Source of the DNA: Escherichia coli | GTDB taxonomy: Bacteria; Pseudomonadota; Gammaproteobacteria; Enterobacterales; Enterobacteriaceae | Length of the DNA: 64,000 nucleotides | Strand: one strand, 5' to 3' | Assembly (NCBI RefSeq): GCF_013122565.1 | Contig: NZ_CP053258.1 | Shown here: piece by piece, positions 1,929 through 59,221 of the stretch | Position numbering within the stretch: position 1 is the stretch's first letter | Layout: every line of letters starts with the position of its first letter | Program-made: the position numbers and the translations under genes | Notes under the pieces: generated by a model | The model's database searches: none | Told to the model about the DNA's origin: nothing | The model's input: only the letters and a program-made list of their open reading frames with translations

Positions 1929-4900
1929 ATGCAGGTCAGCAGAAGGCAGTTCTTTAAGATCTGCGCTGGCGGTATGGCAGGCACCACGGCAGCGGCACTG
2001 GGTTTTGCACCCAGCGTAGCACTCGCGGAAACCCGGCAGTATAAACTGCTGCGCACCCGCGAAACCCGTAATACCTGCACCTATTGTTCCGTAGGCTGTG
2101 GGCTGTTGATGTACAGCCTCGGTGACGGAGCAAAAAACGCCAAAGCATCTATCTTCCATATCGAAGGCGATCCGGATCACCCGGTCAACCGCGGTGCACT
2201 TTGTCCGAAAGGCGCTGGCCTGGTGGATTTCATCCACTCCGAAAGCCGTCTGAAGTTTCCGGAATACCGTGCGCCAGGTTCTGATAAATGGCAGCAAATC
2301 AGTTGGGAAGAGGCGTTTGATCGCATCGCCAAACTGATGAAAGAAGACCGCGATGCTAACTACATTGCGCAAAACGCCGAAGGCGTGACTGTTAACCGCT
2401 GGCTCTCTACCGGGATGCTGTGTGCTTCCGCATCGAGTAACGAAACCGGCTATTTAACGCAAAAATTCTCCCGCGCGCTGGGTATGCTCGCGGTCGACAA
2501 CCAGGCGCGTGTCTGACACGGACCAACGGTAGCAAGTCTTGCTCCAACATTTGGTCGCGGTGCGATGACCAACCACTGGGTCGACATCAAGAACGCCAAC
2601 CTCGTCGTGGTGATGGGCGGTAATGCCGCTGAAGCTCACCCGGTCGGGTTCCGCTGGGCGATGGAAGCCAAAATTCACAACGGCGCGAAGCTGATTGTGA
2701 TCGATCCTCGCTTTACGCGTACGGCGGCGGTAGCTGACTACTATGCCCCTATTCGTTCCGGTACTGACATTGCTTTCCTGTCAGGCGTATTGCTGTACCT
2801 GCTGAACAATGAAAAATTCAACCGCGAATACACCGAAGCCTATACCAACGCCAGCCTGATCGTGCGTGAGGATTACGGCTTTGAAGATGGCCTGTTCACC
2901 GGCTATGACGCGGAAAAACGCAAGTACGATAAATCCTCCTGGACTTACGAACTGGACGAAAACGGCTTCGCCAAACGCGATACCACGCTGCAACATCCGC
3001 GCTGCGTGTGGAACTTGCTGAAACAGCACGTTTCCCGCTACACGCCAGATGTGGTTGAAAACATCTGTGGTACGCCAAAAGACGCGTTCCTGAAAGTCTG
3101 CGAATACATCGCAGAAACCAGTGCTCACGATAAAACTGCCTCGTTCCTGTATGCCCTCGGCTGGACGCAACACTCCGTTGGTGCGCAAAACATTCGTACG
3201 ATGGCGATGATCCAGCTGCTGCTCGGCAATATGGGGATGGCAGGCGGCGGCGTTAACGCCCTGCGCGGTCACTCCAATATTCAGGGGCTGACGGACCTGG
3301 GGCTGCTGTCGCAGAGCCTGCCAGGTTACATGACGCTGCCAAGCGAGAAGCAGACCGATCTGCAAACCTACCTTACCGCCAACACGCCAAAACCGCTGCT
3401 GGAAGGCCAGGTAAACTACTGGGGCAACTACCCGAAATTCTTCGTCTCTATGATGAAGGCCTTCTTTGGTGATAAAGCGACGGCGGAAAATAGCTGGGGC
3501 TTTGACTGGTTGCCGAAGTGGGATAAAGGCTACGACGTCCTGCAATACTTCGAGATGATGAAAGAAGGCAAGGTCAATGGCTATATCTGCCAGGGCTTTA
3601 ACCCTGTTGCCTCATTCCCGAACAAAAACAAAGTGATCGGTTGTCTGTCGAAACTGAAGTTCCTCGTCACTATCGACCCGCTGAACACTGAAACCTCTAA
3701 CTTCTGGCAGAACCACGGTGAGCTGAACGAAGTTGACTCGTCGAAGATCCAGACCGAAGTGTTCCGTCTGCCATCGACCTGCTTCGCGGAAGAGAACGGT
3801 TCAATCGTTAACTCAGGTCGCTGGTTGCAGTGGCACTGGAAAGGTGCGGACGCCCCGGGGATTGCGCTGACTGACGGCGAGATCCTCTCCGGTATCTTCC
3901 TGCGCTTGCGCAAGATGTATGCCGAACAGGGTGGCGCAAACCCGGATCAGGTGCTGAACATGACCTGGAACTACGCCATTCCGCATGAGCCGAAGTCGGA
4001 AGAAGTGGCGATGGAGAGCAACGGTAAGGCGCTGGCCGATATTACCGATCCGGCAACCGGTGCGGTTATCGTCAAGAAAGGTCAACAACTTAGCTCGTTC
4101 GCCCAACTGCGCGATGACGGTACAACTTCCTGTGGTTGCTGGATTTTCGCCGGTAGCTGGACGCCGGAAGGCAACCAGATGGCACGCCGTGATAACGCCG
4201 ATCCGTCTGGCCTCGGTAACACGCTGGGCTGGGCATGGGCATGGCCGCTTAACCGCCGCATTCTGTATAACCGCGCCTCCGCAGATCCGCAGGGTAACCC
4301 GTGGGATCCGAAGCGTCAGTTGCTGAAATGGGACGGCACTAAGTGGACCGGCTGGGATATTCCGGACTACAGCGCAGCGCCTCCGGGTAGCGGCGTCGGG
4401 CCGTTTATCATGCAGCAGGAAGGCATGGGGCGTCTGTTTGCCCTCGATAAGATGGCGGAAGGTCCGTTCCCGGAACACTACGAGCCGTTTGAAACGCCGC
4501 TGGGAACTAACCCGCTGCATCCAAACGTTATCTCGAACCCGGCTGCACGTATCTTTAAAGACGACGCCGAAGCATTGGGTAAAGCCGATAAGTTCCCGTA
4601 TGTCGGAACCACCTATCGTCTGACCGAGCACTTCCACTACTGGACCAAACACGCGCTGTTGAACGCGATTTTGCAGCCAGAGCAGTTTGTGGAAATCGGT
4701 GAGTCGCTGGCGAATAAACTTGGCATTGCCCAGGGCGATACCGTGAAAGTCTCCTCCAACCGTGGCTATATCAAAGCCAAAGCGGTGGTGACCAAACGTA
4801 TTCGCACGCTGAAAGCGAACGGCAAAGATATCGATACCATCGGTATTCCGATTCACTGGGGCTATGAAGGCGTTGCGAAAAAAGGCTTTATTGCCAATAC

Positions 4901-4979
4901 GTTGACGCCATTCGTCGGTGATGCGAACACGCAGACGCCGGAGTTTAAGTCCTTCCTTGTGAATGTGGAAAAGGTGTAA
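1929..4979 (+). CDS. fdoG: Formate dehydrogenase-O alpha subunit (selenoprotein, in-frame TGA)
   Basis: ORFs 1929-2516 and 2565-4979 are in the same frame, joined through TGA at 2514-2516; Tat signal MQVSRRQFFKICAGG; total 1016 aa as in K-12 FdoG. Confidence 0.9.
2514..2570 (+). other. Selenocysteine UGA codon (2514-2516) and presumed downstream SECIS region
   Basis: In-frame TGA inside the molybdopterin enzyme ORF, with the reading frame continuing; SECIS hairpin inferred from position, not folded. Confidence 0.7.
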
Positions 4980-6526: not shown

Positions 6527-7452
6527 GTATTCGCATAATCCCGCAAGATGAGCTGGGTTCGGGCGAGAAACGTACGGCGGATATGATTCCGCCGTTATTG
6601 TTCCCTCGGCTCAAGAATTTATACAACCGCCGCGCCGAGCGTCTGCGCGAGCTGGCAGAAAATAATCCGCTGGGTGATTACCTGCGCTTTGCTGCGCTTA
6701 TCGCCCACGCCCAGGAAGTGGTGCTGTACGACCATCCGCTGGAGATGGATCTGACTGCACGCATTAAAGAAGCCAGCGCACAAGGCAAGCCCCCGCTGGA
6801 TATTCACGTTCTGCCGCGTGATAAGCACTGGCAAAAGCTGCTGATGGCGCTAATTGCTGAGCTGAAACCTGAAATGAGCGGCCCGGCGCTGGCAGTGATT
6901 GAGAATCTGGAGAAGGCATCGACTCAGGAGCTGGAAGATATGGCCAGCGCACTGTTTGCCTCTGATTTCTCATCCGTCAGTAGCGATAAAGCGCCGTTTA
7001 TCTGGGCTGCACTGTCGCTCTACTGGGCGCAGATGGCCAATCTGATCCCCGGCAAAGCCCGCGCTGAATACGGCGAACAACGTCAATATTGCCCGGTTTG
7101 TGGTTCTATGCCGGTGTCCAGCATGGTGCAAATTGGCACCACTCAGGGTCTGCGTTACCTGCACTGCAACCTGTGTGAAACCGAATGGCACGTAGTGCGC
7201 GTAAAATGCAGCAACTGCGAGCAGAGCGGCAAACTGCATTACTGGTCGCTGGATGACGAACAGGCCGCGATTAAAGCCGAAAGCTGCGATGACTGCGGCA
7301 CTTACCTGAAAATTCTCTATCAGGAAAAAGAACCGAAAGTTGAAGCCGTGGCAGATGACCTCGCCTCTCTGGTACTGGACGCACGAATGGAGCAAGAAGG
7401 CTATGCCCGCAGTTCCATCAACCCGTTCCTGTTTCCGGGTGAAGGGGAGTAA
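6523..7452 (+). CDS. fdhE: Formate dehydrogenase accessory protein FdhE
   Basis: 309 aa with CxxC pairs ([27 protein letters not shown]); overlaps fdoI stop. Confidence 0.9.
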
Positions 7453-7629
7453 TCTCTGACGTTTTCCGGGTGGCGCTGGTCGCCCGGATTACAGCTCATA
7501 GGGTGTGACGACACCATCTCTCGTATTCCGCGTTACCACCTCAAGCTATGCCGCCTGTGCCTGTTTGCCTCGTTCTTCCCTCCAACACATCGATAAGGTT
7601 ATTGGTATGTTACTGATGACAAGCGTAAG

Positions 7630-7745
7630 ATTGCCTGATGCGCTGCGCTTATCAGGCCTACCAATAAACTGCAATACATTGAATTTTCATGACTTTGTAG
7701 GCCGGATAAGGCGTTCACGCCGCATCCGGCATGAACAACGCACAC
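7630..7745. repeat. REP/BIME-type palindromic elements
   Basis: gcctgatgcgctgcgcttatcaggcctac and gtaggccggataaggcgttcacgccgcatccggca motifs typical of E. coli REP units. Confidence 0.75.
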
Positions 7746-7780
7746 GTTGTCAGCAATCTGATTGACATCATTTTTTCCCA

Positions 7781-8002
7781 TTACCCTTCCTCGCGCAGCT
7801 TACGCTGGTATTCGACACCATCTTCCTCATACACTTGCCAGATGCCAGGAACACTGGATCTTGCTGTTTGCAATTGATTTTCCAGGTATTGTTCTACCGC
7901 TTCTCGTAATAGGTCTGCACGCGGAAGATTACGCTGCACCTCAAGATCATCAAGTTGCTTAATCACCTCATTCGATAAATCGAGTAAAATTCTGCTCATA
8001 TC
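7781..8002 (-). CDS. yiiF: Ribbon-helix-helix (CopG/Arc-like) small DNA-binding protein
   Basis: ORF 7781-8038; likely start [12 protein letters not shown] at 8002; shares the REAVEQYLE motif with its neighbour. Confidence 0.7.
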
Positions 8003-8117
8003 CCAACCTGCCAGAGGGTTCGTAAATATTTCACCCATATCATTTTTGAATCTATGGAGAGAAAAGTACCCTTGCCGAATCTTAAAAGAAAGCTCATTTA
8101 CGCATCATTTTTTATTT

Positions 8118-8136
8118 TTGCGAGGCGTTTTCCAGA
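8118..8136 (-). promoter_or_regulatory. Conserved upstream motif ttgcgaggcgttttccaga, copy 1 (upstream of yiiF)
   Basis: Identical 19-mer recurs at 8557-8575 and, with one change, at 9788-9807, each about 90-120 bp upstream of a minus-strand start codon. Confidence 0.5.
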
Positions 8137-8241
8137 TATGATGTAACAGTTGCAGTTATTATAAGTTCAAGTAAAACAGTCTTGTATTAATACCAGAATA
8201 AGGGCATCTGGTTTTTATATTCAAGAATAATATATTTTTTG

Positions 8242-8460
8242 TCATTCCTTATGCTCCTTACACTGATCATCAACAACTACTGTCTCACCCCTTTGCCTGC
8301 CTCCCTTTGCTTTACGCACCGGAAATTGCTGCCGCTCCAGATATTGCTCAACCGCTTCGCGTAAAATTGCAGATCGTGAAACCTTACGCCAGCCCCGAAG
8401 CTTGTTCAGCCGTTTAATTGCCTCTTCTGATAAATGAAGAAAAACCGTATTCATCGTCAT
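8242..8460 (-). CDS. yiiE: Ribbon-helix-helix (CopG/Arc-like) small DNA-binding protein, paralog of yiiF
   Basis: ORF 8242-8469; [11 protein letters not shown] motif; tandem paralog of yiiF including its upstream region. Confidence 0.7.
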   Translation of the reverse strand: MTMNTVFLHLSEEAIKRLNKLRGWRKVSRSAILREAVEQYLERQQFPVRKAKGGRQRGETVVVDDQCKEHKE

Positions 8461-8556
8461 TGCCACCACCTAACATATATTATTCATTAATGTATGTACG
8501 AAAACTACGCCGGAAAATTAATTAACGAAAGCGGATTTTTGCATGTTGTTTTGTTT

Positions 8557-8575
8557 TTGCGAGGCGTTTTCCAGA
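8557..8575 (-). promoter_or_regulatory. Conserved upstream motif ttgcgaggcgttttccaga, copy 2 (upstream of yiiE)
   Basis: Same 19-mer as copy 1; also followed by the related gttgcagtt box seen after copy 1. Confidence 0.5.
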
Positions 8576-8985
8576 AATAATAAGAGCGTTGCAGTTGTTT
8601 CAATTGTTACTCAAAAATGGTTTAGTTATCGCCCAAAATGAATTATAGGTGCTATGAATATATTATATTCAGGGATATTTATTTTTTCATTGGATCTTTA
8701 TTTGCATAATCTGAATGGTGTAGCCGAAAAATGTCAGCATCCTAACAGCACCCGGATTTACGGTGAAATTAATCATCCATCACAGACCGGTCAGTACTGC
8801 TACCAACCGGTCTTAACTTGCTCATCGTTATAATTTTGTTGGTAACAGTTCGGGAAACAAGGAATTCCTTCCGGAACACCCCTGACATCATCCGATAGCA
8901 TTGACGTCAATCATCGGCGCGACGATGAGTTTTTTAATCGCATCATAGGGTGGCAACGGTCAGCACGATTACGGGTCATAGCAAA

Positions 8986-9090
8986 ACTCCTGAGCAGGTG
9001 GCACTACGCCGCTTTCACAGGAGTTCTGAATGCTGGTGCTTTCTGTATGGCATAACCATGCCTCTAACGGTTAAGTGCTTGCAGCACATG
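8986..9090. repeat. About 105-bp direct repeat, copy A (overlaps 3' end of antitoxin gene)
   Basis: aactcctgagcag..gccgctttcacaggagttctgaatgctggtgctttctgtatggc.. recurs at 10802-10906 with roughly 85 percent identity by eye. Confidence 0.8.
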
Positions 9091-9354
9091 TTGCGGATCA
9101 TTGGCAATCGCTCGCAGCAAAGCCTTTGCAGGCCCGGTCGGTGAACGTCGCCCCTGCTCCCAGTTACGCAACGTGTCTACACTTACAGAAATAAGATCGG
9201 CAAATTTAGATTGTGACAACCCTGAAGCGCGGCGTATTTCTTTGATTTTCATAGCATCAACTTCAAAAGTCCGCGAAGGCTGTCGCGTTCCTTCAATAAT
9301 TTCATTCATCTGGGCCATGCTGTGAGTCAACCGCTCAAAAAGTGCCTTATCCAT
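9064..9354 (-). CDS. HTH (XRE-family) antitoxin, HigA-like
   Basis: 96 aa; helix-turn-helix segment IRRASGLSQSKFADLISVSVDTLRNWEQG; start abuts the stop of the upstream toxin ORF. Confidence 0.7.
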   Translation of the reverse strand: MDKALFERLTHSMAQMNEIIEGTRQPSRTFEVDAMKIKEIRRASGLSQSKFADLISVSVDTLRNWEQGRRSPTGPAKALLRAIANDPQHVLQALNR

Positions 9355-9666
9355 TTACCACCTCGTATTTAACAACCGGAGCATTGCTTTTTCCTGGGGA
9401 GACAGATCATCTTTAATACCCTTACGATAAATAAGCAGTAATCTGATCTCATAATGTTTAACCTGATGAAAGTAAATAACCCTGACACCAGCACGTTTCC
9501 CCTTTCCTCCTGACACCCATCGAATCTTTCTTAACCCACCAGTTTCAGGTATTACCTCACCATAGTCAGGATTCAAGGCCAGGAAAAACTGAAAACGACT
9601 GAATTCATCGTCGGTCAGCAGTTTTTGAACATCTTCAGTAAAAATTTCCGTTTCGATGAAGAGCAT
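9355..9666 (-). CDS. RelE/HigB-superfamily (Gp49-like) toxin
   Basis: 103-aa basic protein placed upstream of an XRE antitoxin (toxin-first hig-type layout); conserved-looking GVRVIYF...LLLIYRKG core. Confidence 0.65.
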   Translation of the reverse strand: MLFIETEIFTEDVQKLLTDDEFSRFQFFLALNPDYGEVIPETGGLRKIRWVSGGKGKRAGVRVIYFHQVKHYEIRLLLIYRKGIKDDLSPQEKAMLRLLNTRW

Positions 9667-9787
9667 AATTATACGCCATTGGCTTAGAGTAACAATCCTT
9701 TTTGTACGTCATTGACGTACCCTTGAAACCACTAGCTTACTGATAGTGCTCCAGCAAAACCACGTCTCTGCCGGGTTTGTCTTTACA

Positions 9788-9807
9788 TTTGCGAGGCGCT
9801 TTCCAGA
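9788..9807 (-). promoter_or_regulatory. Conserved upstream motif tttgcgaggcgctttccaga, copy 3 (upstream of toxin-antitoxin operon)
   Basis: One-mismatch copy of the yiiE/yiiF upstream 19-mer, about 120 bp upstream of the toxin start. Confidence 0.5.
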
Positions 9808-9819
9808 TTTTTCACGCCC

Positions 9820-36426: not shown

Positions 36427-36577
36427 AACTTTGCCTCAGGCATTAGAAATAGCGCGTTATTGTACACGGATTAATCGCACTACAAAACAGGATCACAAAC
36501 ATCCTCCGCAAACAAGTATTGCAGAGTCCCTTTGTGATCGCTTTCACGGAGCATAAAAAGGGTTATCCAAAGGTCAT

Positions 36578-36645
36578 TGCACCAATATGGTGCTTAATGT
36601 TTCCATTGAAGCACTATATTGGTGCAACATTCACATCATGGTGCA
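36578..36645 (+). promoter_or_regulatory. NtrC (NRI) enhancer sites upstream of glnA
   Basis: Dyad sites tgcaccaatatggtgct, gcactatattggtgca and tcacatcatggtgca (TGCACC-N-GGTGCA type). Confidence 0.75.
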
Positions 36646-41199: not shown

Positions 41200-41300
<101 letters not shown>

Positions 41301-42946: not shown

Positions 42947-43456
42947 TTAGTTACCCCGCAGCAGACGCATCATGTCTTCTTGCTTCTCGTCTTCTTCCTC
43001 TTCTTCGTCATCGTCATAAGAGAGGCCGAGTTTCTGCATCAACTCATCAATACGATCCAGTTTAGCATCCACCCAGGATTGCTCTTCGGCGCTCAGGGTT
43101 TCGCCTGCTTCCAGACGTTCCAGCAGCGCATCCAGACGCTCATCCGTTTCCAGTAATTCCAACTCCGCCTGCGGTGAAAGCATAGGTTTCTCACTCTTCG
43201 GTTTGTGCTGTTTGGTGACTTTTTCAGTCACGCCCAATGGAATAGGGGTTTTGCTGCCAATACGTGGATCTTTCGGTGCGTTCTGGCCTTTGCTGCCTGA
43301 CGTGGTGTTACCGCCCGCTGCGCGGCTGCCCGGCGCATGACCACGACGTTTTTTCTGACGCTTACGGTCACGAGCTTCCTGATCCAGCTCCTCGCGTGTT
43401 TTTCGACGCGCTTTTGCATGACCTTTGCTGCGTGAGTTTGAAGATGATGGTTTCAT
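42947..43456 (-). CDS. yihI: Der GTPase-activating protein YihI
   Basis: Highly basic N-terminus and acidic C-terminal tail; 169 aa from [12 protein letters not shown]. Confidence 0.85.
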
Positions 43457-43522
43457 AATGGTTCGTCTTTTAGCCGTTTTATTCAGTATAGATTTGCGGC
43501 GGAATCTAACAGAAAGCAAGCA

Positions 43523-43767
43523 AAGAAAAAAGGCGACAGATTACTCTGTCGCCTTTTTTCCTGACTCATAACCCTTAACGGGTCTTACAATCCTTGCAGG
43601 CCGCCAACACACCCTGTTTTTCCATTAGCCGGAACAATCCGTGTTGATTCCATTTCCGTTTAATTACGTCTCCGGACGTTTGTCTTCCTGACAATCCTCT
43701 GTCTTCGCCTCCTGGCGCTCCTGACCCTCATCCTGAGTCATTGTTCCTGTTAGCGTCCTCGCTCTAT
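43523..43767 (-). ncRNA. csrC: CsrC small RNA (CsrA-sequestering)
   Basis: Minus-strand sequence begins ATAGAGCGAGGACGCTAACAGGAACAATGACTCAGGATGAGGGTCAGGAGCG, carries many GGA motifs, and ends in the terminator GGCGACAGAGTAATCTGTCGCCTTTTTT; lies between yihI and engB. Confidence 0.8.
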
Positions 43768-44037
43768 GGGTGCTACTTTACGCCTTTGCTTTAAACAAAC
43801 AATCAACCGCCATCAGCATTTGCACATTTTCAGAGTTTTATATAAAAGCAATTAGCTGATTTATATAGCTTATTTGATATGGATCGCAGAATTTTCTCTG
43901 CTATTTCGCATAAAGACTATCGGCAATGTCTCACAAAGCGTATGGCTTTTACTTACAACGCTCACGCCGAAAAATCCGCCTTTTATTATGGTTCAGGTAT
44001 AATCGCCACAAAGCTTTGACTGACGGAGACGACCGCT

Positions 44038-44670
44038 TTGACTAATTTGAATTATCAACAGACGCATTTTGTGATGAGTGCGCCAGATATTCGCCACCTA
44101 CCTTCCGATACCGGAATTGAAGTGGCTTTTGCAGGCCGTTCCAACGCAGGTAAATCCAGCGCGCTGAACACGCTGACTAACCAGAAAAGCCTGGCTCGTA
44201 CCTCAAAAACCCCTGGACGCACCCAGCTTATCAACCTGTTTGAAGTGGCTGACGGCAAGCGTCTGGTTGACTTGCCTGGGTACGGTTATGCGGAAGTCCC
44301 GGAAGAGATGAAGCGCAAATGGCAGCGCGCGCTCGGCGAATACCTCGAAAAACGTCAGAGCCTGCAAGGTCTGGTGGTGCTAATGGATATTCGCCATCCG
44401 CTGAAAGATTTGGATCAGCAGATGATTGAGTGGGCGGTAGACAGCAATATCGCCGTTCTGGTGCTGCTGACCAAAGCGGACAAACTGGCAAGCGGCGCAC
44501 GTAAAGCGCAATTGAATATGGTGCGTGAAGCGGTGCTGGCGTTTAACGGTGATGTGCAGGTTGAAACGTTTTCTTCGCTGAAGAAACAAGGCGTGGACAA
44601 GCTGCGGCAGAAACTGGATACCTGGTTTAGCGAGATGCAGCCTGTAGAAGAAACGCAGGACGGCGAATAA
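44038..44670 (+). CDS. engB: Ribosome biogenesis GTPase EngB/YihA
   Basis: TTG start; [23 protein letters not shown]1 GRSNAGKSS. Confidence 0.9.
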
Positions 44671-44684
44671 TTTTCTTGCCTTAA

Positions 44685-44770
44685 AGCTTGTGCCGGATGT
44701 GGCGTATCCGGCCCGTAAATTCAATAGATTACAATTCTACCGTTGGCCTGATAAACATGGCGCATCAGGC
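44685..44770. repeat. REP palindromic elements
   Basis: gccggatgtggcgtatccggc and ggcctgataaacatggcgcatcaggc. Confidence 0.7.
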
Positions 44771-44794
44771 ATTACGGACTTTTTCTTTCGCCCA

Positions 44795-44903
44795 ATAAAA
44801 AACGCCCCAGTCATTACTGACTGGGGCGGCTAAAATATTCAGCCAAATCCGATTACGTGAAGTAAAAGGTCTGAAAGATAGAACATCTTACCTCTGTACC
44901 CTA
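44795..44903 (-). ncRNA. spf: Spot 42 small RNA
   Basis: Reverse complement reads GTAGGGTACAGAGGTAAGATGTTCTATCTTTCAGACCTTTTACTTCACGTAATCGGATTTGGCTGAATATTTTAGCCGCCCCAGTCAGTAATGACTGGGGCGTTTTTTA. Confidence 0.9.
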
Positions 44904-45051
44904 CGCGACTAACTTTACTCTTTTTTGTTCAGTTCAGAAAGCACTTTTTGTAATTTTTTTTCAGTTGTTGCATAGGAATTTCTAATAGCCATCACAAAAC
45001 GTGACAGCTTATGTTGCTTACTTACGAAAAAAGGGCATGTTCAGGCGAATC

Positions 45052-47838
45052 TTAGTGCGCCTGATCCCAGTTTTCGCCACTCCCCACTTCCACCAGCAAC
45101 GGCACATCCAGACGGGTACAGTTTTCCATCAGTTGATGAATCTGCTTCGCGACGGCATCGACATCATCTTTATGAACTTCAAATACCAGTTCATCGTGTA
45201 CCTGCATGATCATACGCACACGCGGTTGCTCAGCCTGTAACCACGCATCAACGGCAATCATCGCCCGTTTGATAATGTCGGCGGCGGTTCCCTGCATTGG
45301 CGCGTTAATAGCTGCACGTTCAGCCGCTGCACGACGAGCACCATTGCTGGATTTGATATCCGGCAGATACAGACGGCGTCCGTCCAGCGTTTCAACGTAG
45401 CCCTGCTCTTTCGCCTGAGCACGGGTGCGTTCCATATACTCCAGCACGCCAGGGTAGCGTTCGAAGTAAAGGTCCATGTACTTCTGCGCTTCTTTACGTG
45501 GAATGTTCAATTGCCGCGCCAGACCGAAAGCACTCATGCCATAAATCAGACCAAAGTTGATCGCTTTCGCGCTACGGCGTTGCTCGCTGGTGACGGTTTC
45601 CAGTGGCAAACCAAACACTTCTGCCGCCGTTGCCCGGTGGATATCTTTTCCTTCCGCGAATGCGGTCAGCAAGCCTTTGTCACGCGAGAGATGCGCCATA
45701 ATGCGCAGTTCAATCTGCGAGTAGTCCGCTGAGACAATCACATAATCCTCTGGCGCAATAAACGCCTGGCGGATACGACGACCTTCTTCGTTACGCACCG
45801 GAATGTTTTGCAGGTTAGGATCGGTTGACGATAAACGTCCCGTTGCAGTTACTGCCTGGTGATAAGAGGTATGCACACGCCCGGTTTTCGGGTTGATCAT
45901 CAGCGGCAGCTTGTCGGTGTAAGTCGACTTCAGCTTCGCCAGACCACGATACTCCAGAATCACTTTTGGCAACGGATAGTCCAGCGCCAGTTCTTCCAGT
46001 ACCTCTTCCGACGTTGACGGCGCGCCACCCGGCGTTTTCTTCAGCGGTTTAATGCCCTGTTTTTCAAACAGAATGGTTTGTAACTGCTTGGTGGAAGAAA
46101 GGTTAAATTCTTCACCTGCAATTTCATGCGCTTTCTTTTCCAGCTCAGCAAGACGAAGGGTGAGCTCTTCAGAATGATTGTGCAGCACTTTCGGATCGAT
46201 CTTCACACCGTTACGTTCAATGCGTGAAAGCACCGGCACCAGCGGCATTTCGATATTCTCGAAGACGTTCAACGGCCCTTTGTGTTTTTGCAGATCCGGC
46301 CACATTTTCAGATGCAACTGCAAGGTGACATCCGCATCTTCGGCGGCGTAACGTCCGGCCTCTTCGAGGGCAATCTGGTTAAAGGTCAGTTGATTTTTGC
46401 CTTTACCCGCAATCTCTTCAAAAGTGATGGTTTTGTGCTTCAACCAACGTTCCGCGAGGCTGTCCATATCGTGACGCCCGGCAACGCTATTGAGAATGTA
46501 GGACTCCAGCATGGTATCAAACGCAATCCCACGCAGCTCAATGCCGTAATTCGCCAGAATACCGCGGTCGTATTTCAGGTTTTGCCCGACCTTCAGCGCC
46601 TTTTCATTTTCCAGCAGCGGTTTTAGCAACTCGAGTGCACGCTCGCGAGAGATTTGATCGGGCGCATCAAGATAATCATGAGCAACCGGAATATATGCCG
46701 CTACGCCTGGCTCGATAGCAAAAGAAAGCCCGACCAGGTTAGCAGAGATGTTATCGAGGCTGTCGGTTTCGGTATCAAATGCAAATACCGGCGCTTTTTC
46801 CAGCTTCGCAATCCACGCTTTCAGTGTTTCTTCATCAAGGATGGTGACGTAGTTGTCATAAGAAATCACCGTTGCCGTCACTTCTGGCGCTTCGTCTGCA
46901 ACACTGGTTTCCTGCGGTCTGGCTGCGGGTTTCGCCCCTTTAGCCTGTAACCATTTGCCCGCTTCGACATCAGCAGTCCAGCGTTTGAACTCATACTTTT
47001 TGAACAGCCCCAACAACTCTTCCGCCGCCGGTTGCTGCACTTCCAGTTGTTCACAGGTCAGCTCCAGTTCAACGTCGGTTTTAATCGTCGCCAGCTGGTA
47101 TGAGAGATAAGCAACTTCTTTGTTTTGCTCGAGCTTCGCTGCCATTGTTTTCGCGCCACGGAAGCTCAACCCAGCAATTTTTTCTGGCTCGGCATACAGC
47201 GTATCCAGTCCGCCAAGACCTTGCAGCAATGCCTGCGCGGTTTTTTCACCGACGCCCGGTACGCCAGGGATGTTATCAGAGGAGTCACCCATCAGCGCCA
47301 GGAAGTCGATGATCAGTTCAGGCGGCACGCCGTACTTATTCACCACCTCTTCCGGTCCGAGGATGGTATTCGTCATGGTATTGATAAGCGTAATATTTGG
47401 CGTCACCAGCTGCGCCATATCTTTATCGCCAGTGCTGATCAGCACCGGACGCCCAGCTTTTTCGGCTTCGCGCGCCAGAGTACCGATAACGTCGTCCGCT
47501 TCTACGCCAGAAACCGCCAGCAGCGGCAGTCCCATCGCTTTAACCATCGCGTGCAGAGGTTCGATTTGTGCTCGCAGATCGTCCGGCATTGGCGGGCGAT
47601 GTGATTTGTAATGTTCAAACAGTTCATCACGAAAGGTTTTTCCCTTGGCGTCAAAGACCACCGCTGCATGCGTCGGTTTATATTGCATGATCAGACTGCG
47701 CAGCATGTTGAGGACACCATACATCGCACCGGTAGGCTCGCCTGCGCTGTTAGTCAGCGGGGGAAACGCGTGATATGCGCGATAAAGATAAGATGAACCA
47801 TCTACAAGGATAAGTGGATTTTGGGGGATCTGAACCAT
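45052..47838 (-). CDS. polA: DNA polymerase I
   Basis: 928 aa; [21 protein letters not shown] 5'-nuclease N-terminus; Klenow motifs. Confidence 0.95.
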
Positions 47839-53999: not shown

Positions 54000-54119
54000 A
54001 TGCCTGGCAGTTCCCTACTCTCGCATGGGGAGACCCCACACTACCATCGGCGCTACGGCGTTTCACTTCTGAGTTCGGCATGGGGTCAGGTGGGACCACC
54101 GCGCTACGGCCGCCAGGCA
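54000..54119 (-). rRNA. rrfA: 5S ribosomal RNA
   Basis: Reverse complement matches the E. coli 5S sequence TGCCTGGCGGC...GGAACTGCCAGGCAT (120 nt). Confidence 0.95.
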
Positions 54120-54211
54120 AATTCTGTTTTATCAGACCGCTTCTGCGTTCTGATTTAATCTGGATCAGGCTGAAAATCTTCTCTCATCCGCCAAAACAGC
54201 TTCGGCGTTGT

Positions 54212-57115
<2,904 letters not shown>

Positions 57116-57288
57116 TCACAACCCGAAGATGTTTCACTTCAGAGTTGCGAAAATTTGAGAGACTCACGAACAACTTTCGTTGTTCAGTGTTTCAATTTTC
57201 AGCTTGATCCAGATTTTTAAAGAGCAAAACTTCGCAGTGAACCTTTGCAGGTACACTCTGAAGTATTTTTTATTTAATCACTACAGAG

Positions 57289-57364
57289 ATGGTGGAGCTA
57301 TGCGGGATCGAACCGCAGACCTCCTGCGTGCAAAGCAGGCGCTCTCCCAGCTGAGCTATAGCCC
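57289..57364 (-). tRNA. alaT: tRNA-Ala (UGC)
   Basis: Reverse complement GGGGCTATAGCTCAGCTGGGAGAGCGCCTGCTTTGCACGCAGGAGGTCTGCGGTTCGATCCCGCATAGCTCCACCA. Confidence 0.95.
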
Positions 57365-57406
57365 CATAACATGTAGTTAAAACCTCTTCAAATTTGCGGT
57401 GCAAAT

Positions 57407-57483
<77 letters not shown>

Positions 57484-57552
57484 TGTAGAGGTTTTACTGC
57501 TCATTTTCATCAGACAATCTGTGTGAGCACTGCAAAGTACAGTTCTTTAAGG

Positions 57553-59093
<1,541 letters not shown>

Positions 59094-59221
59094 TAAAAGT
59101 TTGATGCTCAAAGAATTAAACTTCGTAATGAATTACGTGTTCACTCTTGAGACTTGGTATTCATTTTTCGTCTTGCGACGTTAAGAATCCGTATCTTCGA
59201 GTGCCCACACAGATTGTCTGA

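Follow-up and report, generated by a model that had tools for sequence, protein, structure and literature searches.

The csrC and spf (Spot 42) small RNA genes in a 64-kb Escherichia coli DNA window, the open reading frames that overlap them and the nested SpfP gene

Two intervals of the Escherichia coli DNA analysed here (the window, a single stretch of 64,000 nucleotides) are the small RNA genes csrC and spf, and they almost certainly function as the published K-12 sRNAs do, the small protein SpfP encoded within Spot 42 included. As regulators of E. coli, CsrC and Spot 42 are textbook knowledge. Both genes had been recognised in an earlier note made from the sequence alone. The observation is correct and describes something already known: judged by their sequence, the copies of csrC and Spot 42 are identical or nearly identical to those of K-12.

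The polA-spf-engB-csrC-yihI locus of the window is of the type standard in enterobacteria. As read from the ORF list and from the RefSeq and K-12 annotations, the gene order is polA-spf-engB(yihA)-csrC-yihI and matches that of K-12. According to this gene-order annotation, polA is located at 45052-47838 on the minus strand. Between csrC and spf, on the plus strand at 44038-44670, lies engB/yihA (210 aa, TTG start), annotated in RefSeq as the ribosome biogenesis GTP-binding protein YihA/YsxC. The earlier note had given one start-to-end span, 43523-44903, for its two sRNA genes; the span also encloses this genuine protein gene. The downstream neighbour of csrC is yihI (Der GTPase-activating protein), a gene of 510 nt at 42947-43456 on the minus strand in the K-12 and RefSeq annotations. 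The mechanically called yihI ORF is over-extended to 43519 (42947-43519); it ends 3 nt before csrC and overlaps the Rfam match of CsrC at the 3' tail only.

The 123-bp spacer between engB and spf (44671-44793) displays two REP-like short palindromes, noticed by eye in the sequence. We take GCCGGAT..ATCCGGC and GCCTGAT..ATCAGGC to be putative REP palindromes. An inverted-repeat search of 44660-45060 returned the spf terminator alone, the 7-bp stems of the REP-like elements being below the limits of the search. Overall, the window is approximately 1% diverged from all the complete E. coli genomes compared, with best identities of 98.9% for 43300-45200, 99.2% for polA and 98.6% for the engB region. 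Compared with K-12 and strain MB52, 20 to 22 differences were counted in 1.9 kb, distributed over engB, two spacers, yihI and polA, and four of these differences from the E. coli relatives sit in the engB-spf spacer. None of the csrA, hfq, crp, uvrY/barA and csrD genes lies within the 64-kb window. Elsewhere in the window, a 327-aa ORF (9820-10803) was considered as a possible IS110/IS621 transposase; this candidate was rejected, the ORF corresponding to an alpha/beta hydrolase.

The whole window was scanned with the Rfam covariance models at their gathering thresholds. The CsrC model (RF00084) matched the minus strand at 43514-43767 over its full length (positions 1-255 of 255), with 277.9 bits against a gathering threshold of 61 (E 1.2e-87). 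The Spot_42 model (RF00021) matched the minus strand at 44796-44914, also over its full length (positions 1-115 of 115), with 122.8 bits against a threshold of 80 (E 3.6e-24). The earlier note had proposed such a scan, together with an alignment to K-12, and had named scores below threshold in both intervals as evidence against its reading; both scores are above threshold, and the alignments gave 99.6% identity for csrC and 100% for spf. A permissive E-value scan of 43300-45200 added nothing credible, its weak matches being due to the csrC terminator only.

The csrC gene, encoding a CsrA-sequestering sRNA of 246 nt, occupies 43522-43767 on the minus strand. Read from 43767 to 43522, it is identical at 245 of 246 positions to the annotated csrC of K-12 MG1655 (b4457). 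The assignment of 43523-43767 to CsrC was thus right, with coordinates accurate to within one base. The only substitution is a T at 43624 where K-12 has an A, which places a U instead of an A at position 144 of the RNA; it turns AAGGA into AUGGA and retains the GGA motif. This allele is not peculiar to the window: 100% identical copies are present in O157:H7 and in 15 others of the 60 E. coli genomes sampled, and no substitution separates the gene from that of strain MB52.

The predicted fold of CsrC is stable, with a minimum free energy (MFE) of -87.7 kcal/mol (z = -6.98). The 246-nt sequence contains 14 GGA motifs, compared with 8.9 ± 1.95 in dinucleotide shuffles (19 of 2000 shuffles reach 14) and with a window-wide mean of 3.1 per 246 nt, so the description of csrC as GGA-rich is justified. 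In the Rfam consensus structure, GGA is found in the loops of five short hairpins in the 5' half, and a sixth candidate is located further 3'. The CGCC-AGGA-GGCG hairpin displays compensatory changes from C-G to U-A among orthologues. A terminator scan detected an intrinsic terminator at 43523-43562 (minus strand), with an 18-bp stem between an A-tract and a T-tract, and the sequence quoted for it in the earlier note, GGCGACAGAGTAATCTGTCGCC, was found at 43532-43553 in the minus-strand reading. These flanks make the element terminator-like on both strands; the plus strand matches positions 200-244 of the CsrC model at 42.9 bits. The terminator is kept in all of 29 orthologues, with some compensatory changes.

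Upstream of csrC, the UvrY-P binding region of the promoter was located at 43918-43957 on the minus strand. It consists of the inverted repeat TGTGAGACATTGCCGATA (43918-43935) and, 16 bp upstream of it, a TGTAAG half-site (43952-43957). The match is exact, with none expected by chance. The sequence of the csrC UvrY-P site and its DNase I footprint were described by Zere et al. 2015 (PMC4682653). The window therefore contains what is, by its sequence, the BarA-UvrY-type promoter element of csrC. A sigma-70 consensus scan of 43400-45100 returned no promoter, against 1.9 expected, for csrC and spf alike.

The spf gene lies at 44794-44904 on the minus strand. From 44904 to 44794 it is identical at 111 of 111 positions to spf of K-12 MG1655 (b3864), and the classic 109-nt form of Spot 42 spans 44796-44904. 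The earlier note had recognised Spot 42 correctly, but its interval of 44795-44903 is shifted by one base, the 5' G being at 44904. The MFE fold (-40.6 kcal/mol, z = -5.08) contains three hairpins. The intrinsic terminator (44803-44828, minus strand) is formed by an 11-bp stem followed by a U-tract, and shows compensatory changes among 113 unique sequences. The polA-spf spacer displays at most one difference from K-12 and MB52. Compared with K-12, this is one single-base indel at 45035, indicating that the K-12 spf promoter is effectively present. CRP-like sites were searched over the whole window with the pattern TGTGA-N6-TCACA, allowing up to 3 mismatches. The best site upstream of spf (44981-44996) has 2 mismatches. 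Since the window contains 199 such matches against 219 expected, this site carries no weight.

Spot 42 is a dual-function RNA, and SpfP is a real small protein. The 15-codon ORF MFYLSDLLLHVIGFG runs from 44886 to 44839 on the minus strand, starting at position 19 of Spot 42. It is intact, its translation is identical to K-12 b4837, and His10 is present. Translation of SpfP and its binding to CRP were shown by Aoyama et al. for the identical sequence (PMC8916003), and the same paper reports His10 to be critical. The 15-aa ORF with His10 was found in 103 of 117 spf loci, a count in which codons 8 to 15 alone are informative, codons 1 to 7 being fixed by the search pattern; none of the 103 loci with a 15-aa ORF lacks His10. 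The loci without it belong mostly to Alteromonadales (Shewanella and relatives). In databases, spfP is annotated as b4837 in the K-12 RefSeq record, and PGAP calls it in part of the E. coli genomes. The earlier warning against annotating track ORFs near these intervals as proteins needs one amendment: Spot 42 also codes for SpfP. With 15 aa, spfP falls under the 20-aa limit of the ORF list, and the statement on track ORFs is thus unaffected.

Both genes are widely distributed. Of 5426 complete E. coli genomes, 5424 contain csrC and spf, and the identity of spf is 99% or higher in 5423 of 5424. A search with a 22-mer of Spot 42 gave 120 loci from Enterobacterales, Vibrionales, Aeromonadales and Alteromonadales. 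Among the 113 unique sequences from these four orders, hairpins 2 and 3 covary, with many compensatory changes, and positions 2-15, which are outside the search pattern, have the same base in at least 90%. In about 30 species, spf is followed on its own strand by a csrC homologue approximately 1.05 to 1.1 kb downstream. Identity of the 28 full-length orthologues to the window goes down to 53%; 27 of them contain 12 to 15 GGA motifs and the remaining one 9, and the GGA-loop hairpins and terminator are retained with compensatory changes. Yersinia, Serratia and Rahnella have diverged CsrC-like RNAs that escaped the single-sequence nhmmer search with csrC. These were recognised by their GGA counts and, in Yersinia alone, by the Rfam family RF02767, at the engB-yihI slot. 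The GGA-rich RNAs of Serratia, Rahnella and one Pantoea (10 to 16 GGA) have a similar terminator and score below every Rfam threshold.

Several known systems can be compared with the two genes. K-12 csrC shares with the present copy its length of 246 nt, its position between yihA/engB and yihI, the 14 GGA motifs, the terminator and the upstream UvrY repeat. For K-12 spf the RNA is the same throughout, and the two copies have in common the three hairpins, the location between polA and yihA and the uninterrupted 15-aa SpfP ORF. CsrB (RF00018) follows the same decoy principle as csrC, with many GGA motifs and a strong terminator, but belongs to a different sequence family. It is longer than CsrC, has 22 GGA motifs (PMC7652899) and is not what is annotated between engB and yihI. 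CsrC itself was first described in 2003 (PMC7652899). The CsrC of Yersinia (RF02767, Ysr186/sR026) has the decoy principle and the engB-yihI slot in common with the present locus and is followed directly by the same conserved block upstream of yihI; however, it is 305 nt long, belongs to a different family and has diverged beyond the reach of single-sequence nhmmer.

As the earlier note had remarked, short ORFs fill both sRNA intervals. Eleven ORFs of at least 20 aa lie over the RNAs: 8 (22 to 48 aa) over csrC and 3 (25 to 47 aa) over spf. With a cut-off of 60 aa, no ORF overlaps either gene. One could suppose that at least one of these ORFs is a genuine small-protein gene, with CsrC, for instance, acting as a dual-function RNA, and Spot 42 offers a precedent for an sRNA that encodes a protein. 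Databases also lend some support to this idea. In a spread sample of 60 E. coli genomes, the sole RefSeq feature listed under csrC is a "hypothetical protein" in 60 of 60. Moreover, the 25-aa csrC ORF (43664-43741) corresponds to the hypothetical protein Z5401 of O157:H7 EDL933 and occurs on 645 contigs, and the 48-aa antisense ORF corresponds to the hypothetical protein c4814 of CFT073, for which a UniRef entry exists. However, the RefSeq feature is a spurious pseudo-CDS (43575-43741, minus strand; csrC positions 27-193) that joins the 25-aa ORF to a 39-aa ORF (43575-43694), and the four records that were opened all flag it as "frameshifted; internal stop". None of the 11 ORFs matched Pfam or NCBIfam, and the 36-aa and 47-aa plus-strand ORFs that enter spf, which originate in the engB-spf spacer, are also absent from the protein collection. 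Conservation was assayed across species for the five sense-strand ORFs of csrC. These five are intact in only 1 to 3 of 28 orthologues, and the other E. coli is in every case among them; start codons are retained in 4 to 13 of 28, and length changes that are not a multiple of three break the frame in 15 to 20 of 28. The longest ORF at csrC moves in position and strand between species. Conservation at csrC concerns the number of GGA motifs and the hairpins rather than any reading frame. A conserved function of the short csrC ORFs is thus largely refuted, the description of the overlapping track ORFs as spurious is borne out, and a genuine small protein of at least 20 aa over csrC or spf appears very improbable.

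Two other readings concern the RNA genes themselves. csrC and spf could be intact-looking relics, unexpressed or non-functional in the source host. All complete E. coli genomes differ from the window by about 1%, so this host is not among the studied strains, and no sigma-70 consensus promoter was detected. Yet the RNA genes and the regions upstream of them are conserved to the degree seen in functional strains: the substitutions that separate the window from K-12 and MB52 are found in the flanking genes and spacers, with 0 differences in spf and 0 to 1 in csrC; the polA-spf spacer is equally close, and the UvrY site is exact. We consider the relic reading even less probable than that of a small-protein gene. 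Finally, the match at 43.5 kb might have been CsrB, the paralogue, or a further CsrB/RsmB clan member, because Rfam groups CsrB and CsrC in a single clan (CL00106), because both have GGA repeats, and because lower-scoring matches from the same clan were suppressed in the scan. Nevertheless, CsrC is the best-scoring clan member and is matched over its entire model, the gene is nearly identical to b4457 and occupies the same position between engB/yihA and yihI as K-12 csrC, and the repeat found upstream has the csrC sequence TGTGAGACATTGCCGATA where csrB would have TGTGAGAGATCTCTTACA. We therefore discard this reading entirely and retain the identification of the two intervals as csrC and spf.

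A short conserved block was observed between the csrC terminator and yihI. This near-invariant sequence of about 31 nt, TTTCTGTTAGATTCCGCCGCAAATCTATACT, runs from 43515 to 43485 on the minus strand and is a probable yihI promoter or operator. It is much more conserved than CsrC: 22 to 31 nt hardly vary between Escherichia and Yersinia, Serratia or Pectobacterium, also where CsrC is absent. Each E. coli genome contains a single copy, without annotation. The block was found in 40 spf-anchored loci, usually about 55 to 70 nt upstream of the yihI start codon, and farther upstream in six loci with an insertion between block and yihI. Pectobacterium, Dickeya and Brenneria keep the block and have no GGA-rich RNA between engB and yihI. 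The possibility that the block is part of CsrC was rejected for this reason, and its persistence without CsrC indicates that it belongs to the upstream region of yihI; membership in a putative antisense sRNA was considered as well. Its 3' end, TCTATACT, is a putative -10 element resembling the sigma-S type. A literature search for yihI together with csrC found nothing on the block. It might represent an undescribed yihI operator or promoter, with the csrC T-tract serving as its upstream element, or with terminator read-through into yihI; we regard this as an unlikely, though not negligible, proposal. If it were true, coupling through the T-tract or read-through would tie Csr signalling to the control of ribosome assembly via yihI.

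The mechanism expected for the two RNAs follows from published work on identical or near-identical sequences, and this applies to the binding of CsrA, Hfq and CRP, to regulation and to targets. Phosphorylated UvrY would bind the inverted repeat about 160 bp upstream and activate the csrC promoter. CsrC would then act as a decoy, its 14 GGA motifs (many located in short-hairpin loops) binding several CsrA dimers and relieving target mRNAs of CsrA control. The control of CsrC by BarA-UvrY, the titration of CsrA through GGA sites and the mechanism of CsrB and CsrC are summarised in PMC7652899. From the 99.6% identity to the K-12 RNA, we infer that CsrA sequestration and CsrD/RNase E-dependent turnover probably take place as described for CsrC in that work (PMC7652899). 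By Hfq-dependent base pairing, Spot 42 would silence galK and other mRNAs whose products serve the utilisation of secondary carbon sources, and spf would be repressed by cAMP-CRP. Pairing with galK and other catabolic mRNAs is expected from the 100% identity to the RNA studied in PMC8916003. SpfP, produced from the Spot 42 transcript, would bind CRP and reinforce catabolite repression within the same feed-forward loop.

The locus also illustrates how annotation errors arise at sRNA genes. Mechanical ORF lists, and the RefSeq pipeline as well, put protein or pseudogene features in csrC, and Z5401 and c4814 are translations of an RNA locus. An Rfam pass ahead of ORF calling removes such errors. 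Masking Spot 42 as non-coding, on the other hand, must spare the nested spfP gene.

The window differs by approximately 1% from each of the complete E. coli genomes searched, with best identities of 98.9%, 99.2% and 98.6% for three of its regions. The host may thus represent an E. coli-like lineage missing from that collection, possibly Shigella or a cryptic clade. Despite this divergence, csrC (43522-43767, minus strand) and spf (44794-44904, minus strand) both have 100% matches among complete E. coli genomes. The interval of about 5.7 kb that separates fdhE from fabY (7453-13200) was found at 80% coverage or more in only 241 of the 5426 complete E. coli genomes, with a best identity of 96.6%. 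It contains two RHH/CopG genes, a nadS pair, an Abhydrolase_3 gene (9820-10803) and direct repeats at 8061/8500 and 8985/10802. A 617-aa ORF on its minus strand (10972-12825) had no Pfam match; in relatives, it is annotated as two features, a 'transposase' plus a partial hypothetical protein.

A 'hypothetical protein' is annotated by RefSeq/PGAP within csrC (43575-43741, minus strand) in all 60 sampled E. coli genomes; in the four records inspected it is a pseudo-CDS, frameshifted and with an internal stop. A csrC ncRNA feature was listed in none of the 60. Z5401 of EDL933 is a 25-aa sense ORF in csrC, and c4814 of CFT073, for which a UniRef entry exists, is a 48-aa antisense ORF (43425-43571, plus strand). 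The mechanical yihI ORF (42947-43519, minus strand) has a TTG start, placed 21 codons before the annotated ATG (43456), and extends as far as the csrC terminator, indicating that the yihI N-terminus is over-called by the ORF track.

Two REP-like palindromes (GCCGGAT..ATCCGGC and GCCTGAT..ATCAGGC) occur in the engB-spf spacer (44671-44793). Of the 20-22 substitutions counted against E. coli relatives, 4 fall in this spacer; the plus-strand ORFs running antisense into the spf terminator originate here. On the other side, in Pectobacterium, Brenneria and Dickeya, Spot_42 is directly adjoined at its 5' end by the Rfam family Fwd6_3p_UTR (6712-6827, 4383-4498 and 1741-1856 in the spf-anchored loci L035, L056 and L124, respectively). 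Thus, in these genera the polA-spf spacer is a separately described RNA element.

Other RNA elements were matched at the Rfam gathering level: on the minus strand, the sRNA ES222 (36508-36615), naRNA4 (41222-41299) and StyR-44 (57123-57222), the latter in the rRNA operon spacer, and on the plus strand a SECIS element (2511-2569). The rRNA operon is complete, carries two tRNAs and occupies 54002-59094 (minus strand). The SECIS element lies where the plus-strand ORF 1929-2516 meets its neighbour on that strand, 2565-4979; the two are presumably split by the selenocysteine UGA of fdoG.

Directly 3' of the csrC terminator lies a conserved block of about 31 nt, TTTCTGTTAGATTCCGCCGCAAATCTATACT (43485-43515, minus strand). 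In E. coli it occurs once per genome and carries no annotation. Over its first 22 nt, the block is near-invariant across the Enterobacterales, including Pectobacteriaceae with no CsrC in this place. Of ten inspected loci, most have the yihI ATG approximately 55-70 nt downstream of the block, and this distance is greater at loci with an intervening insertion. The block contains TCTATACT, which we take to be a putative sigma-S-like -10, and probably corresponds to the yihI promoter with a putative operator. In six loci (L024, L023, L086, L119, L041 and L120), block and yihI are set apart by an insertion of roughly 65-110 nt. A second TATATACT motif follows it in at least five of the six, L023 being ambiguous, and the insertion may represent a small mobile element accompanied by a target-site duplication.

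Finally, in Serratia, Rahnella and Pantoea sp. Mb-10, the engB-yihI slot holds a GGA-rich stretch (10-16 GGA per 300 nt) with a CsrC-like terminator at its end. These stretches lie in the approximately 300 nt located 5' of the conserved block in L102 (block at 7410, plus strand), L061, L068 and L120 (block at 4668, plus strand). They matched no Rfam family at gathering score, and appear to be diverged CsrC homologues lying outside current models.
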